NCBI GenBank assembly: GCA_001797845.1
Contig: MGQN01000047.1
Location: 1-50,748 of the forward strand
Reading direction: 5' to 3'
Length of the DNA: 50,748 nt
From: Deltaproteobacteria bacterium RBG_16_44_11
GTDB taxonomy: Bacteria > Desulfobacterota > Syntrophia > Syntrophales > Smithellaceae
Shown here in pieces: positions 1-21,945 of this stretch. A program made the translations under genes and the position numbers. The notes under the pieces are model-generated. The model saw only the letters and a list, made by a program, of their open reading frames with translations, did not search any database and was not told the DNA's origin. The stretch's first letter is position 1; each line of letters opens with the position of its first letter.

Positions 1-327
1 TATCTCTTATATTTTGTTCAAAACAATCCTATAAAAGACTTTTCAAATATTGTGTGCGAATCTTTATGGTCAGGAACACCTTTAATAACAGATAAGACGA
101 TGGTTATGGATGAATATACTGAATATACGGAAGTCTCAGCAGGGAATAAGCCCATTGTCTTAGATTTGGATGAGACCGAAACAGCCCAAATTGACATTAG
201 TAAAATTATAAGTAGTTGGCAGGGACCGTTTCGCTACAATAATAAGATAAAATATAATTTTTCAGACTATATTGATGCGAATTTAAAGATATATAGAGCT
301 GCATGTTTAGAAAAAAAGGCTTTGTAA
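1..327 (+). CDS. C-terminal ~108 aa of a hypothetical protein truncated by the left window edge
   Basis: Frame 1 is open from base 1 to TAA 325-327. The listed 52..327 ORF only starts at an internal GTG. No motif recognised. Confidence 0.4.
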   Translation, partial: YLLYFVQNNPIKDFSNIVCESLWSGTPLITDKTMVMDEYTEYTEVSAGNKPIVLDLDETETAQIDISKIISSWQGPFRYNNKIKYNFSDYIDANLKIYRAACLEKKAL

Positions 328-428
328 CCGGGGGCAAGTTTTTACTTAGGGAACAAAGGGTCTTTGCTTGACTCATTAGCAACCTCAGATACTAAAGTTT
401 AAATGGTAATCTTCAATTTATCTTTCAA

Positions 429-449
429 GTAGCATGTGCGGACTTGTAG
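429..449 (+). repeat. Direct repeat copy 1: GTAGCATGTGCGGACTTGTAG
   Basis: 20/21 identical and in the same orientation as 3150-3170. Confidence 0.85.
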
Positions 450-541
450 ATATTTTCAAGCACTCATTTCTTCCTGTACTCCACAAATCGTCAACCTCGA
501 CGAAAAGGCAGCACTTTAATCCGCAATAAACACAATTGAAG

Positions 542-633
542 TTCTTCGCAGCAAGCCGCAAAGAATCTTCGATTCATAAGGAATAACATCATTCAGTATT
601 CGCTCGCTTATTCCACAGCAAGCTATAGAGAAT
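542..633. repeat. Two degenerate REP-like imperfect palindromes sharing a CAGCAAGC centre (542-565 TTCTTCGCAGCAAGCCGCAAAGAA; 608-633 TTATTCCACAGCAAGCTATAGAGAAT)
   Basis: Each unit's arms are partly self-complementary around AAGC. The units align to each other at roughly 70 percent. They lie in a GC-richer stretch of a 496-nt non-coding gap that has stops in all frames. Confidence 0.4.
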
Positions 634-705
634 GCGCTCGCTATCGAATTCACGCTCGACGACTAACATCGGCACCACACCTTAGATTTTGTGATCAATA
701 TTTAA

Positions 706-734
706 TTGACATACAAGCCCGAAATTATTATAGT
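706..734 (+). promoter_or_regulatory. Sigma70-type promoter TTGACA-17 nt-TATAGT for the nuclease-NTPase gene
   Basis: TTGACA at 706-711, a 17-nt spacer, then TATAGT at 729-734, about 90 nt upstream of ATG 824. Confidence 0.5.
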
Positions 735-823
735 TCAAACATGATCAAGTAATGTCTTATCAAAAACCCTTTGTAAAACTCGCGACTTCTTCTTGCCGAA
801 ATTATTTGATGAAGAGAGAATAA

Positions 824-3133
824 ATGTCTAATTACGATTTCAAAACACTTTCGCCAATCGATTTTGAAATATTAGTTCGAGATCTTCTACAAGAAGAGCT
901 AAAGGTGCGATTGGAAAGCTTTAAATCAGGCCGCGATGGAGGAATAGATTTAAGGTATTGTCCAAACCAAGATAATACTTTGATTATTCAATGCAAGCAT
1001 TATGCAGAGTCTTCCTTTAAACTGTTACTCAGCAAAGTAAAGAAAGATGAGTTGGAAAAGGTAAAACAGCTCAAACCTAAGCGCTATATACTGGCAACTT
1101 CTATAGGACTAACTCCCAAACAAAAAGATGAACTTGTAAAAGTTCACATGCCTTATATCCATTCTCCTGGAGACATATTTGGTAAAGACGATTTAAATGG
1201 ACTGTTGACAAAATATCCTAAAATCGAAAGATATACTTTTAAGCTCTGGTTTTCTGGCGTTTCTGTTCTTGAGGAAATACTACATGGCAAGGTAAAGAAT
1301 GTTTCACGAGATGCCCTTGAAAAGATCCAACAGCATGCTAAGTATTATGTGCAAAATAAAAGTTATCCCGAAGCTCTTACGATTCTCGATAAATATAATT
1401 TCTGTATCATCGCAGGAATACCAGGTATCGGTAAAACGATACTAGCAGAAATGCTTTCTTTACATTATGTAAAGTTGGGATATGAAATTGTTAAAATTAA
1501 CGGCGATATATCAGAAGCAACAGCGCTTGATTATGTTAAACAAAAAAGGGTCATTTACTATGATGATTTTCTGGGACAGGCAGCTCTTTCTGAGAAGCTG
1601 AATAAAAACGAGGATCAAAAGCTCATAGATTTCATCCATGCCATATACAAATCTAAAGTGTCAAAACTTATTCTTACTACAAGAGAATATATCCTTCATC
1701 AAGCGCAAATGATTTATGAAAAACTTTCCCGAGAGAAATTTGATGCCGAGACGTGCATAATCGATTTAACAAAATATAATCGGCTTAATCGTGCACAAAT
1801 TCTTTATAATCACATTTATTTTTCTGACATACCCGTTGCTTTTAAAAACGCTATCCTTAATGGACGTCATTATCTCAAAATAATTGACCATCATAACTAC
1901 AATCCAAGGATAATCGATTTGATGACGCAATATCCACGTCTTCAATACATCCATCCCCATGATTATTTTAAATCCTTCATGTCAAATTTAGACAATCCAC
2001 TAGAAATATGGCGGCATGCTTTTGAGGAACAACTTTCAGATGGCTCACGAAGTGTTCTAATGGTAATGACAAGTATGCCTGAGCAAGTCTTTTTGGAAGA
2101 TTTACAGGAAGCTTTCTTAGCTTATCATTTAAAACAAGCTAAAGAGTATCAGTTCAAAACCTCACCCAATGACTTTTTACATGCTCTGAAAGAATTGGAA
2201 GGAAATTTCATCGTCACAGAAAAATCCAACGACAGAACAATTATACGACTTCATAATCCATCCATAAGAGACTTTCTTCGCGACTATCTAGCCTCCCATG
2301 AGCAGCTGTTGCGCGCCCTTTTTCGGACGGCTACATTTTTTGACCAACATATGGCTCTTTGGGAGTTTCGCGAAGAACAAAGTGCATCGCTAATATTCAG
2401 AAAAACATTGGTGAAGTATAATTCAGAATTTGTTCACGCTCTGTTTTCGAGTCTCAATTTTAGGATGTGTCGATTGAGAAATATTCAAGTTGGTAAAGGG
2501 AACATATATAAGGACATATGGGATATGACATTTGAAGCCAGAGCAACGCTGGTGGTTTCTGTTGCTTTCGAGCTTAAAAACGATTTGTCTATGAAGCTGC
2601 TTAAACAGGTGATAGATATTATTAATCAGAGAATGATTGATAAGCATGTGTATGACCGCGATGATCTTGTACGGTTTTTAAAAGAACTAAAAAAAGCAGA
2701 AAAGGTTTTATCTGTTTTAAGTTCTGCTTTTTTGGATCGAGTAAAGAACTATCTAACAGATGACATCGGTTCCCTCGATAGCATAGAGTGTTTTTGTGAC
2801 TTTAAAGGCCTTTTCCCAAAGGTTATTACTAAAGATGTTGTAGACAGCATGAAATATAAGTTCATTGACTATGCTGAGCAAGACGTATGGGATTCTCATT
2901 ATGAAGACCCGGATTACTACCGTGATGAGGCCTATAAAATAGAGAAATTGGCTAAGCAGTTCAAAGTAGACATGTCAGATACAATAAAAGCGCTGGAAAC
3001 TCATGCGAACGAACTAGAAGAAGAACAACAACCTGATGAGCCAGATGATCTTAAAGGCTATAGTTCGGGACGCGGTTCTGATTCGTGCAGCGATAGTGAT
3101 ATTGATTCTATTTTTAGTACGCTGAGGAAGTAA
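824..3133 (+). CDS. Mrr-type PD-(D/E)xK nuclease domain fused to a P-loop NTPase and a ~500-aa uncharacterised helical C-terminal region (candidate STAND-like defence protein)
   Basis: N-terminus FEILVRDLL...GRDGGID(42)...IIQ(56)CK(58)HY matches the Mrr catalytic pattern. Walker A is GIPGIGKT (aa 198-205) and Walker B-like is VIYYDD (aa 243-248). The tail is acidic and Ser/Asp-rich. Confidence 0.75.
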   Translation: MSNYDFKTLSPIDFEILVRDLLQEELKVRLESFKSGRDGGIDLRYCPNQDNTLIIQCKHYAESSFKLLLSKVKKDELEKVKQLKPKRYILATSIGLTPKQKDELVKVHMPYIHSPGDIFGKDDLNGLLTKYPKIERYTFKLWFSGVSVLEEILHGKVKNVSRDALEKIQQHAKYYVQNKSYPEALTILDKYNFCIIAGIPGIGKTILAEMLSLHYVKLGYEIVKINGDISEATALDYVKQKRVIYYDDFLGQAALSEKLNKNEDQKLIDFIHAIYKSKVSKLILTTREYILHQAQMIYEKLSREKFDAETCIIDLTKYNRLNRAQILYNHIYFSDIPVAFKNAILNGRHYLKIIDHHNYNPRIIDLMTQYPRLQYIHPHDYFKSFMSNLDNPLEIWRHAFEEQLSDGSRSVLMVMTSMPEQVFLEDLQEAFLAYHLKQAKEYQFKTSPNDFLHALKELEGNFIVTEKSNDRTIIRLHNPSIRDFLRDYLASHEQLLRALFRTATFFDQHMALWEFREEQSASLIFRKTLVKYNSEFVHALFSSLNFRMCRLRNIQVGKGNIYKDIWDMTFEARATLVVSVAFELKNDLSMKLLKQVIDIINQRMIDKHVYDRDDLVRFLKELKKAEKVLSVLSSAFLDRVKNYLTDDIGSLDSIECFCDFKGLFPKVITKDVVDSMKYKFIDYAEQDVWDSHYEDPDYYRDEAYKIEKLAKQFKVDMSDTIKALETHANELEEEQQPDEPDDLKGYSSGRGSDSCSDSDIDSIFSTLRK

Positions 3134-3149
3134 ATTCCAATTATTTTTG

Positions 3150-3170
3150 GTAGCATGTGCGGACTCGTAG
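3150..3170 (+). repeat. Direct repeat copy 2: GTAGCATGTGCGGACTCGTAG
   Basis: Begins 17 nt after the stop of the 824..3133 gene and is 20/21 identical to 429-449. Confidence 0.85.
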
Positions 3171-3236
3171 GTGACAACGAGAATCAAGGCAAGACATAAC
3201 TGGACACTGTGGGGTCGTTGAAAAACCCTATGTTTG

Positions 3237-3361
3237 GGGGCTGTTCAAAAATGTTCAGATGCAAGGCGCGTAAAAAACCGAACCGCGAGGCGTATATGGA
3301 TATACGTTGAGCGGTGCGGCTTGCAGTGCAACACAGCAAATGAGCGTTTTTCAACAGCCTC
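3237..3361. other. Long GC-richer imperfect hairpin / inverted repeat (~125 nt) between convergent gene ends
   Basis: Arm 3239-3262 pairs with 3336-3359 (19 Watson-Crick + 2 GU of 24). Inner pairing is CCGAACCGC (3278-3286) with GCGGTGCGG (3311-3319). The apex is CGTATAT-GG-ATATACG (3291-3306). Confidence 0.6.
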
Positions 3362-3368
3362 TTGGTAT

Positions 3369-4196
3369 TTACTTTTGATCTTTAATCACTACTTTAATTT
3401 CAAAAATCTGCGGCCAGAGTTTCCCGGTAACAAAAATCCTGTCCCGGTTATGATCATAGGCTATTCCATTCAACACATCTATATTTTTATGTTGGGGAAT
3501 TAAGGAATACAGAAGGCTTAAATCTACCCACCCTAAAACTTTGCCTGTCACCGGAGAAATACGCACAATCAGGTCTTTTTGGAAAATGTTTGCCCAAATT
3601 TCTCCTTTAATAAATTCCAACTCATTGAGATTGCCGATTTGTTGTTGTCCGTCGTGAACAATAATTTTTCGATGAACGGTAAAAGTCAGCGGGTCAATAC
3701 AGGAAATAACCGCTGATCCATCGCTCATAAACAGGTATTGGCCGTCTGTTGTTATCCCCCAGCCTTCCCCCTCATATGAAAATGTGCTCACTTTCTTGAA
3801 TTCTTTCAGACTGTAAACAAAGCCGGTTTTATTTTGCCATGTAAGCTGATAAATATTATTGCCGAGAATAGTTATTCCTTCACCAAAATATTCCTGCGCC
3901 AAATTAATTATCTTTATAATTTTTCCTGTTTTAATATCCACCTTTCTCAAAGACGATTTTCCGTTGCGACCGGTGGATTCATATAAATATCCTTGGTGAT
4001 AAACAAGGCCTTGTGTAAAGGCATCAGGATCATGAGGGAAGATGTTAATGACTTTTATATCTGATATGGGTGCTTTTGTTTTCCCTTGAAGAGCGTAGGA
4101 TTGCCATTGCCGAACTTCATCAGCGGTCAGGGCTGATCCAAGACAAAAGAAAAATACGGGTAATAACAAAATAATTCGTACAGAATTCATACGCAT
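3369..4196 (-). CDS. Glutaminyl-peptide cyclotransferase (bacterial/plant beta-propeller type), secreted
   Basis: N-terminal signal peptide, and family-typical segments FTQGLVYHQGYLYESTG, EYFGEGITI, GEGWGITTDG and NELEFIKGEIWANI. Confidence 0.85.
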   Translation of the reverse strand: MRMNSVRIILLLPVFFFCLGSALTADEVRQWQSYALQGKTKAPISDIKVINIFPHDPDAFTQGLVYHQGYLYESTGRNGKSSLRKVDIKTGKIIKIINLAQEYFGEGITILGNNIYQLTWQNKTGFVYSLKEFKKVSTFSYEGEGWGITTDGQYLFMSDGSAVISCIDPLTFTVHRKIIVHDGQQQIGNLNELEFIKGEIWANIFQKDLIVRISPVTGKVLGWVDLSLLYSLIPQHKNIDVLNGIAYDHNRDRIFVTGKLWPQIFEIKVVIKDQK

Positions 4197-20985: not shown

Positions 20986-21246
20986 GTGTTGGTTTTAGGG
21001 TTAATTGTAATCATATTTTTAACTGTATCGGGTTTAATTTTTATTTTCCAACGCTATCTGGAATCGAGGCTAATAAGTACCTTGTTCATGCTACTTGGCA
21101 CTGCGATTGCAGTTATTGGATTGATTACAGCAGCTGTCTTTGAACATTTTGGATATCATTTATTGAGTGATTGGTTTGAATATATAGTCCTAATTCCTGG
21201 AATTATACTTATGCTCGTTGGCTTTTTTTATTACCCCATACCATAA
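20986..21246 (+). CDS. Small hydrophobic membrane protein (hypothetical)
   Basis: 86-aa ORF with a GTG start and three predicted TM segments. Confidence 0.45.
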   Translation: MLVLGLIVIIFLTVSGLIFIFQRYLESRLISTLFMLLGTAIAVIGLITAAVFEHFGYHLLSDWFEYIVLIPGIILMLVGFFYYPIP

Positions 21247-21326
21247 ATTATGCTATTGACGATGCCATCAAAGGAAAAATTCCTTCACCTAAATCTTACA
21301 AACTATCACTGAAAAATAAAATAGGC

Positions 21327-21479
21327 ATGCTAATTGGCTTTATGGGGACAACTGGTGGAATCGTTAAATGCTATTATACATATCCGCCTATTTCTCATAT
21401 AGGAATCGCTTTAATCGTATTTGGATTGCTAATATTTATGATTTCGATAATGTATTTGAAGGAAAAAAAGAAAGAATAA
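21327..21479 (+). CDS. Small membrane protein (50 aa, hypothetical), below the ORF-track cutoff
   Basis: ATG 21327 to TAA 21477-21479, encoding MLIGFMGTTGGIVKCYYTYPPISHIGIALIVFGLLIFMISIMYLKEKKKE. The frame is open upstream to 21180. Confidence 0.3.
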   Translation: MLIGFMGTTGGIVKCYYTYPPISHIGIALIVFGLLIFMISIMYLKEKKKE

Positions 21480-21657
21480 AAACATATCAATAGACGGTAA
21501 TTCTCAATTTTGACAACTGTCAAACATTGAGCTTTAGCAAGTGAAGCTGTTAATCTGAACAAAAATTAAGAGAGGTACGAGTAAAATATACCAACAGAAC
21601 ACTGTATATAACAAAGCTTCTTGACAATTATTCGGCATTGTCTGTATTTTTACGTGC

Positions 21658-21945
21658 ATGAACATTTGCCACAAATGTAATAAAGAAATTGCGCAGGATT
21701 TTTTTGTAGGCAGGCAAGCGCAATGCCCCTCCTGCGGAGCTGATTTGCATTGTTGCCTTAACTGCTTTTTTTATGATGCAGGCTCTTATAATGACTGCCG
21801 CGAACCTCAGGCCGAAAGAGTGCTGGACAAAAGCCGGTCTAATTTTTGTGATTTTTTCAGTTTTAAACAAACAACGAAAACTCCCGGCGCAGTTAATTCT
21901 GGCACTAAAGACAAACTGGAATCGTTATTTAAGAAGAGTTTATAA
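21658..21945 (+). CDS. Cys-rich zinc-ribbon protein (hypothetical)
   Basis: CHKC ... CPSCGADLHCCLNC ... C..C pattern, and a candidate promoter TTGACA (21621-21626) directly upstream. Confidence 0.6.
   Translation: MNICHKCNKEIAQDFFVGRQAQCPSCGADLHCCLNCFFYDAGSYNDCREPQAERVLDKSRSNFCDFFSFKQTTKTPGAVNSGTKDKLESLFKKSL

Follow-up and report, generated by a model that had tools for sequence, protein, structure and literature searches.

A gene on the forward strand (824..3133) of a 50,748-nt stretch of DNA from Deltaproteobacteria bacterium RBG_16_44_11, a metagenome-assembled genome from the Rifle aquifer, is likely to code for a stand-alone protein of the antiviral STAND (Avs-like) kind, a member of the phage defence candidate (PDC) family PDC-S73. 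The whole stretch is referred to below as the window. The 769-aa product of this ATG-start open reading frame (ORF) is identical to GenBank OGP66280.1, 'hypothetical protein A2W27_11905'. What was observed are the domain identities, the conservation of motifs, a gradient of conservation along the protein, a STAND fold, the richness of homologue neighbourhoods in defence genes and mobile genetic elements (MGEs), the lack of a partner gene and the polymorphism of the slot that holds the gene; the steps of the mechanism proposed below are all drawn by analogy with Avs3, Avs4, Avs5 and Avs8. A first-pass annotation of the window had proposed a nuclease effector, a switch NTPase and a C-terminal sensor, and Pfam (nSTAND3 and Mrr_cat), PADLOC (PDC-S73), Foldseek and the gene neighbourhoods all agree with this layout.

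Domain architecture and family assignment

The Mrr, Walker A, Walker B and tail motifs named in the first-pass annotation were all located by script at the residues given there. The nuclease carries FEILVRDLL (aa 14-22), GRDGGID (36-42) and IIQCKHY (54-60), which include D42, Q56 and K58, the NTPase carries GIPGIGKT (198-205, with K204) and VIYYDD (243-248), and the tail (736-768) is acidic and Ser/Asp-rich, with 7 D and 8 S in 33 residues. In the Pfam scan, Mrr_cat matched aa 7-85 (E=3.2e-8, 34.1 bits against a cut-off of 21), and nSTAND3 (PF20720) matched aa 175-333 over its entire length (profile positions 1-155 of 155; E=8.1e-49, 165.7 bits against a cut-off of 27.2). Scores for helicases and transposition ATPases were no better than E=0.05 (DnaB_C E=0.05, AAA_22 E=0.16), and because of this difference in score the NTPase is assigned to the switch-type STAND clade, as the annotation had anticipated when it put forward a profile search as a check.

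PADLOC matched the protein (1-765) to the PDC-S73 model PDLC05079 (profile positions 1-750 of 752) collinearly, with E=8.4e-167 and 555 bits. By this profile match the protein is placed in an already catalogued family with an nSTAND3 NTPase, and the earlier remark that it could not be assigned to a named system no longer holds; Avs proteins that combine Mrr and an NTPase, such as Avs8, have moreover been characterised experimentally. The N-terminus of two further PADLOC models was matched by aa 3-162, namely Aga_TIR-PNTD1-PNTD2 (E=2.6e-46, profile positions 2-159 of 639) and Aga_REase-TIR-PNTD1-PNTD2 (E=6e-34). Since these are Argonaute-associated REase/TIR proteins, the ~160-aa nuclease module appears to be a shuffled immune effector cassette. 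The NCBIfam scan of the protein gave only noise (E≥0.006, far under the cut-offs) and thus no model, TIR, APAZ and SIR2 domains were not found in the Pfam scan, and the N-terminal 170 aa alone gave no meaningful match to PDB sequences.

Restriction enzymes of the Mrr type have Mrr_cat as their catalytic domain, and the protein could on this account be an NTP-regulated type IV (modification-dependent) restriction enzyme, in which Mrr recognises and cuts modified foreign DNA and the NTPase serves as regulator or motor. We consider this distinctly unlikely. The Pfam scan found no Mrr_N or other modified-DNA-reading domain, the nuclease lies at the extreme N-terminus (starting at residue 7), and the NTPase is a STAND and not a translocase, with the E-values given above for nSTAND3, DnaB_C and AAA_22. 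Further evidence on either side comes from the fold, the conservation and the neighbourhoods of the family, as described below.

Predicted structure

The full-length AlphaFold2 (AF2) model (pLDDT 81.7, pTM 0.64) consists of an alpha/beta nuclease core, a helical linker, a P-loop nucleotide-binding domain (NBD), a helical domain (HD), a winged-helix domain (WHD) and a helical C-terminal domain (CTD), in that order. The nuclease core is arranged alpha-beta-beta-beta-alpha-beta, and the long remainder of the protein, in which no motif had been recognised and which had been taken to be helical, is helical in the model. Towards the C-terminus, pLDDT falls below 50 at 737-752 and a helix follows at 757-768.

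Foldseek returned SAMD9, Avs4-portal, the AVAST5 filament, EfAvs5, Apaf-1, MalT, NLRC4 and NOD2 as top PDB matches, with E=1e-7 to 3e-4, so that the structural check suggested by the annotation led to Avs4, Avs5, SAMD9, Apaf-1 and NLR proteins. The nucleotide-binding oligomerisation domain (NOD) fold was matched to Avs4, Avs5, Apaf-1, NLRC4, NOD2 and MalT with a Foldseek probability of 1.0, and the TM-scores are low (0.16-0.32) because the arrangement of the domains differs. The winged-helix region falls within the full-length alignments to Avs4, Avs5, Apaf-1 and the NLRs. This resemblance to Avs, Apaf-1 and NLR proteins argues against a type IV restriction enzyme. A Foldseek search of viral structures yielded one phage NLR-like protein and generic AAA+ matches, and was uninformative.

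Conservation and distribution of the family

An alignment of 72 homologues with 41-90% identity revealed invariant residues in the nuclease (D13, E15, D38, D42, Q56, K58), the NTPase (G198, P200, G201, G203, K204, Y246, D247, D248, T285, T286, R287, E288) and the helical domain (D355, H356, N358, P361, R362). Mean identities to 61 more distant homologues were 64% for the nuclease core, 67% for the NBD, 57% for the HD, 45% for the WHD and 27% for aa 479-735. Conservation thus drops steeply beyond the winged helix, and it returns at the extreme C-terminus, where the motif CSDxxIxSxFSTL (aa 755-767, window 3086-3124) follows 250 highly variable residues and D757, I760, S762 and F764 are each conserved in at least 90% of the 72 homologues. 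Judged from sequence, the gradient is the pattern that would be expected for a diversifying sensor on a conserved effector and switch, as is typical of immune receptors, and a highly variable CTD suits a sensor of protein ligands more than a DNA motor of the kind a type IV enzyme would use. The acidic tail has a pI of 4.1 versus 8.9-9.2 for the N-terminal nuclease module.

The family is large, with more than 4,295 proteins matching at E≤1e-5; among the best 120 matches, nearly all share this pair of Pfam domains, and lengths of 750-790 aa predominate. A profile search of 1.84 billion cluster representatives gave 5,283 clusters (50% identity) at E≤1e-3 and 2,817 at E≤1e-30, and the best 150 representatives are all matched collinearly over their full length in a single stretch, mostly at 750-800 aa. 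Members of the family keep to a fixed length of about 765 aa. When 185,579 species genomes were scanned by pattern, 284 homologues were confirmed, distributed patchily over more than 15 phyla.

Some taxonomic labels in this set are in conflict. The locus of a 'Methanothrix sp.' homologue (L005) has the same genes with the same spacing as that of an uncultured Syntrophales (L023), and the contig studied here is deposited twice with identical proteins, as Deltaproteobacteria bacterium RBG_16_44_11 and as Candidatus Nealsonbacteria RBG_13_37_56. Because of these binning conflicts, occurrence of the family in archaea or the candidate phyla radiation should not be inferred, and the L005 label was not relied on as an archaeal record.

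Genomic context of homologues

Gene content was examined on six long contigs, and neighbour statistics were compiled for 149 immediate neighbours from 79 loci. The contexts on the six contigs were MNT-HEPN and ParE toxin-antitoxin pairs; a type I restriction-modification (RM) system, with an AAA_13 ATPase gene directly upstream of the homologue; an integrase/resolvase island with OLD-TOPRIM/AAA_15 and type I RM genes; a TIR gene with an AAA_23 ATPase gene; a NotI RM system with BrnT and ParE; and metabolic surroundings at a contig end. Pfam families among the immediate neighbours included SMC_N (10), AAA_21 (9), AAA_15 (8), AAA_13 (5), AAA_23 (5), OLD-like TOPRIM (4), ResIII (4) and RhuM (3), plus transposase, resolvase and integrase families, and the PADLOC matches were mad3 (9), AriA (6), LmuB, Old, GajA and PtuA (5 each) and PDC-S06 (4). 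In qualitative terms, the neighbourhoods of homologues are rich in defence genes and MGEs, in line with the enrichment that the annotation had proposed to look for.

Many homologues carry the NCBI name 'restriction endonuclease' and several adjoin RM systems, which is what a type IV restriction enzyme might lead one to expect. The adjoining RM systems are complete in themselves (HsdRMS; NotI with a D12 methyltransferase), and a D12 methyltransferase domain occurs in only 2 of the 149 neighbours. A cognate methyltransferase, and with it an RM role, is ruled out on these two grounds.

Carriage by mobile elements raises a different alternative, in which the gene is a competition or addiction module that excludes rival elements or stabilises its carrier, and does not protect the host from lytic phage. 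Homologues were found in 49 plasmid records, 29 of them conjugative, in the temperate Clostridium phage HM T between replication and integrase genes, and in the integrase/resolvase island mentioned above. The majority of loci are nevertheless chromosomal and lie amid defence genes, and bona fide defence systems are commonly carried by mobile elements. Such a module would use the identical logic of sensor, switch and nuclease and would differ from an antiviral STAND in its beneficiary, not in kind; we regard it as unlikely.

Neighbour families do not recur beyond about 6 of the 79 loci, and the largest cluster holds 6 proteins from 5 loci. Same-strand upstream genes of ~800 aa are common and heterogeneous (AAA_13, OLD/AAA_15, S8 peptidase, Pnkp-ligase, SLFN helicase, DEAD helicase), and an obligatory partner gene is ruled out. 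A tandem paralogue was likewise rejected, no neighbour at the 79 loci being similar to the query.

A separate observation concerns ATPase genes of the ABC type. AAA_13 genes (~760-855 aa, same strand, directly upstream) and OLD/AAA_15-TOPRIM genes each adjoin homologues at ~5-6 of the 79 loci. Neighbours of the ABC type lie at L002 7392-9959, L005 7386-9869, L012 5569-7851, L014 1149-3455 and L077 1511-3841, and others adjoin homologues in L004, L026, L028, L065, L066 and L075. Their recurrence may perhaps be mere co-residence in defence islands.

Local context and the cassette slot

The other ORFs of the window code for TsaB, RseP, Dxr, CdsA, UppS, Frr, PyrH, Tsf, RpsB, ArgJ, SecA, LptFG, AhcY, MetK, PanCD, a PrfB-like protein, Lnt, Lon, ClpXP, Tig and two-component proteins, together with tRNAs. 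The STAND gene had been described as the only one outside housekeeping synteny, which is true within the window and fails just past its left edge, where an accessory cluster begins. The locus continues to the left in other assemblies of this genome (L092; window coordinate = L092 - 9177), which give the order UvrD, Adk, a seven-gene cluster resembling those for ribosomally synthesised and post-translationally modified peptides (RiPP-like), the STAND gene, a glutamine cyclotransferase gene and the housekeeping block. The RiPP-like cluster (6.7 kb, L092 3275-9504) comprises genes for a radical-SAM/SPASM protein, PqqD, a 48-aa ORF, a 291-aa protein, an Asn-synthase-like protein, a 615-aa protein of unknown kind and a glycosyltransferase, the last of which ends at window position 327.

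Relatives from the Smithellaceae (L008-L011), with flanking genes 89% identical, served for comparison. They are without the RiPP-like cluster, which is a clean 6.7-kb insertion with the 7-bp sequence CTTCCTG at each junction, and in place of the STAND cassette they have three unrelated small genes (312, 157 and 91 aa), for which PADLOC matched no model. Since these relatives hold different genes between the same conserved boundaries (470-544 and 3171-3208; Table 1), the STAND gene sits in a swappable cassette slot, and its presence or absence is polymorphic. The slot between adk and the glutamine cyclotransferase gene is thus a site of cassette exchange in this Smithellaceae-like lineage.

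Housekeeping genes adjoin the STAND gene in its own genome, and another homologue (L001) likewise adjoins genes such as that for RecO. These neighbours, and the report that STAND clades alternate between defence and non-defence roles (PMC13581612), would fit a non-immune STAND, a regulator or a DNA-repair/recombination factor whose Mrr-like domain is a DNA-binding or structure-specific nuclease module. Such a role is highly improbable: no helix-turn-helix or other output domain was found in the Pfam scan, the taxonomic distribution is patchy with close relatives lacking the gene, the context of homologues is rich in defence genes and MGEs, and the entire ~160-aa nuclease module is common to Argonaute-associated immune effectors.

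The relatives carry a further insertion of five genes between tsaB and a DUF362 gene (L008 4484-9727, also in L009-L011), which the window does not have. Its products are a 428-aa protein of TPR-like type, an ATPase (AAA_16/AAA_22), an HTH_17 protein and two unknown proteins, with weak PADLOC matches (best E about 6e-8) to generic TPR, PrimPol and PDC models, and it may perhaps be an accessory or defence cassette. Within the window, 20986-21945 is the sole part of that scale (>1 kb) without a long ORF; its small ORFs code, among others, for a putative membrane protein of 86 aa and a Cys-rich, zinc-ribbon-like protein of 95 aa, and it has no other feature of note.

Putative promoter, dispersed element and hairpin

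A near-consensus promoter had been noted upstream of the gene and was found as described (Table 1); promoter-like sites in the region are in total no more numerous than in shuffled sequence. The ~90 nt that bear it (678-764) are 76% identical to L008 9835-9750, which precedes the first gene of another accessory cassette, with both hexamers (-35 and -10) conserved, which suggests, as far as sequence goes, a promoter module shared between cassettes.

The gene had also been said to be bracketed by a 21-nt direct repeat. The repeat (429-449 and 3150-3170) is real, with 20 of 21 positions matching and a chance expectation of about 1.5e-4 to 5e-4 for such a pair in 4.5 kb, and its reading as a mark of insertion did not survive. 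A target-site duplication of the STAND cassette is ruled out, as the conserved segment 470-544 lies inside the bracketed interval and the repeat itself forms the core of a longer dispersed element of ~48 nt (consensus GTAATCTTCAATTTATTTTTCAAGTAGCATGTGCGGACTTGTAGGTGA) that is also found in unrelated contigs. Five more copies occur on unrelated metagenome contigs without the gene (L096 1617-1656, L097 127-177, L098 772-815, L099 101-146 and L100 2039-2082), giving seven in total with unrelated flanks. The window has two strain-specific segments side by side, and each has a copy at its 3' end. The function of the element could lie in recombination, in termination or in regulation.

The long imperfect hairpin downstream of the gene (Table 1) is present once in the window and missing from the related genome L008; it is possibly a bidirectional terminator or an insert resembling a miniature inverted-repeat transposable element. 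Rfam returned only four tRNAs in a gathering-threshold scan of the whole window and nothing in a scan of 1-3500 at E≤1, and the ~48-nt element and the hairpin are therefore not known RNA families.

Table 1. Features of the STAND gene and its surroundings (window coordinates)
Feature	Position	Strand	Basis or remark
Left copy of the ~48-nt element (core 429-449), at the right end of the RiPP-like insertion	406..453	+	
Left conserved boundary of the cassette slot	470..544	.	homologous to L008 14245-14171
Predicted sigma-70-like promoter, TTGACA-17 nt-TATAGT, about 90 nt 5' of the ATG	706..734	+	11/12 matches
Possible ribosome-binding site, purine-rich GAAGAGAGAA, 4-13 nt 5' of the ATG	811..820	+	inferred by reading the sequence
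Coding sequence (CDS), Mrr nuclease - nSTAND3 NTPase - helical sensor	824..3133	+	769 aa
aa 1-95, Mrr-type PD-(D/E)xK nuclease core (E15, D42, Q56-x-K58)	824..1108	+	Pfam, conservation, AF2
aa 96-174, helical extension/linker, one ~160-aa module together with the nuclease	1109..1345	+	PADLOC Aga models, AF2
aa 175-315, NBD: Walker A 198-205, Walker B 243-248, sensor-1 TTR 285-287	1346..1768	+	Pfam nSTAND3, conservation
aa 316-404, HD of the NOD, invariant D355-H356-x-N358-Y-N-P361-R362 motif, role putative	1769..2035	+	conservation, AF2
aa 405-478, WHD: helices and beta-hairpin wing 463-476	2036..2257	+	AF2, Foldseek
aa 479-735, compact alpha-helical-repeat CTD with one beta-hairpin, putative sensor	2258..3028	+	CTD-only AF2, conservation
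aa 736-769, disordered acidic Ser/Asp-rich linker, then C-terminal helix CSDxxIxSxFSTL (755-767)	3029..3130	+	AF2, conservation
Right copy of the ~48-nt element (core 3150-3170), overlapping the TAA stop of the CDS and ending where L008 homology resumes	3130..3174	+	
Right conserved boundary of the cassette slot	3171..3208	.	homologous to L008 11932-11895
Long imperfect hairpin, 157 nt, between the convergent STAND and glutamine cyclotransferase genes	3209..3365	.	fold dG -67.5 kcal/mol, z = -5.3

Proposed mechanism

By analogy with characterised Avs proteins, the protein would be a monomer in the uninfected cell, where the helical CTD, perhaps together with the acidic tail, would keep the NOD and the basic nuclease module at the N-terminus inactive. 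A cue from infection, most likely a phage protein, would bind the fast-evolving CTD (aa 479-735) and thereby allow the nSTAND3 site (Walker A K204, Walker B D247/D248, sensor-1 R287) to bind or exchange ATP. Oligomerisation mediated by the NBD and WHD would follow and yield a tetramer or filament, in which the Mrr PD-(D/E)xK domains (E15, D42, Q56, K58) would pair as active dimers. These dimers would degrade double-stranded DNA (dsDNA) regardless of sequence or methylation, and the infection would be aborted.

Precedents exist for several of these steps. Avs8A, with Mrr and a P-loop NTPase, degrades dsDNA when the major capsid protein is bound and ATP and Mg2+ are present, and mutants in its nuclease residues lose defence (PMC12236752); DNA cutting upon activation may be inferred for the present protein by analogy. 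Phage proteins activate both EfAvs5 and PaAvs5, the former of which forms filaments; PaAvs5 is reported with nSTAND3, and EfAvs5 has the 'TTR' motif (PMC11897194, PMC12931631). At least 90 Avs families are now recognised in a survey from 2026 that clustered only sensors of at least 400 aa, and with its ~260-290 aa the sensor described here probably fell outside that survey, owing to this threshold (PMC13581612).

Several findings weigh against an antiviral STAND. None of the validated Avs family models in PADLOC matched at E≤1, nor did a profile of the family (72 homologues) find the sequence of any solved Avs protein in the PDB at E≤1. PDC-S73 is itself a computational candidate, obtained by a guilt-by-embedding approach, and PDCs are described as mostly unvalidated (PMC12988326); the name 'PDC-S73' was found in no paper of the literature library searched, and no published test was found. 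In its own genome the gene has no recognisable defence island around it, the neighbours being the RiPP-like cluster and housekeeping genes, and its GC content (0.363 versus 0.394 for the window) is no more than a weak signal of foreign DNA. The CTD modelled on its own (pLDDT 88.9, pTM 0.82) had no significant Foldseek match in the PDB, the best being generic HEAT/TPR-like solenoids at E=0.048.

The last result has two consequences. The full-length likeness to Avs5 and SAMD9 rests on the NOD, and an Avs5/SAMD9-like sensor is ruled out, since the CTD-only search gave no match to either. With no significant relative for the CTD, its structure gives no indication of the kind of trigger that it might bind.

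That PDC-S73 is a functional Avs family with features unseen in the characterised ones is conceivable, if doubtful. As part of such a reading, the compact alpha-solenoid sensor of ~260-290 aa might detect a class of trigger beyond Avs1-24, and an invariant C-terminal latch, formed by the acidic linker and the CSDxxIxSxFSTL helix, might serve for autoinhibition, either by mimicking DNA or through a head-to-tail contact with the basic Mrr module. The conserved tail may be either a latch or an assembly contact. As a latch, the acidic tail would be the charge-reversed counterpart of the basic tail that EfAvs5 uses for filament bundling.

If functional, the protein would be a minimal Avs of about 770 aa, encoded by one gene and equipped with a small sensor, from a family whose diverse members number in the thousands and occur in anaerobes and soil bacteria, on plasmids and in at least one temperate phage. 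It would represent a nuclease-armed branch beside the SIR2-armed Avs5, with the identical Pfam NTPase domain (nSTAND3), and would offer a tractable system both for the recognition of triggers by a short helical sensor and for the way in which oligomerisation switches on Mrr modules that are common to Argonaute systems. In annotation, the labels 'hypothetical protein' and 'restriction endonuclease' are to be replaced by 'Mrr-nSTAND3 defence candidate (PDC-S73)'.

Comparison with known systems

The Mrr type IV restriction endonuclease shares the catalytic D...(Q/E)xK core and Mrr_cat with the present protein, which differs in having no N-terminal DNA-reading domain and in the fusion of the nuclease to a STAND NTPase and a sensor. 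A homologous N-terminal Mrr module of ~160 aa is found in the Mrr-TIR-APAZ partners of short prokaryotic Argonautes (SPARTA subclade; PMC9097488), to which the PADLOC Aga models presumably correspond. The effector module is all that is common to the two, as TIR and APAZ are missing here and there is no Argonaute among the neighbours.

Among the Avs proteins, Avs3 and Avs4 (nuclease-STAND-TPR, sensing terminase and portal) follow the same logic of effector nuclease, NOD and sensor, and Avs4 (8DGF) is the second-best structural match. Avs4 nevertheless has twice the length (1,534 aa), its TPR sensors are large, its NTPase belongs to another clade, and there is no match at the sequence level. Avs5, or AVAST type 5 (SIR2-nSTAND3-repeat sensor; EfAvs5 PDB 9JAP, AVAST5 filament 9NC9), has the same tripartite order, an nSTAND3 NTPase according to the PaAvs5 paper, conserved Walker A, Walker B and 'TTR' motifs, and a place among the top Foldseek matches (E=3e-7 to 2e-6). 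Its solved chains of 764-833 aa are also close in size to the 769 aa found here. The protein is thus not unusually small, and the earlier statement that it is about half as large as characterised Avs proteins is true of Avs1-4 alone. The two differ in the effector, an Mrr nuclease here and a SIR2 NADase in Avs5, in the C-terminal tail, which is acidic here and basic in EfAvs5, and in the CTD, which alone is unlike the Avs5/SAMD9 sensor; neither the solved Avs5 chains nor any PADLOC AVAST model is matched in sequence at E≤1.

Avs8A (PD-lambda-4) is the best functional precedent for the proposed mechanism and combines an N-terminal Mrr-family nuclease, a P-loop STAND NTPase and a C-terminal sensor. 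It is much larger (155.8 kDa as the tagged protein) and is encoded in a two-gene operon with Avs8B, whereas no conserved partner gene occurs here, and the PADLOC PD-Lambda-4 models do not match the present protein. The closest correspondence is with PDC-S73 (PDLC05079) itself, a single-gene family without a conserved partner, which the protein matches collinearly over its full length and from which it shows no structural difference.

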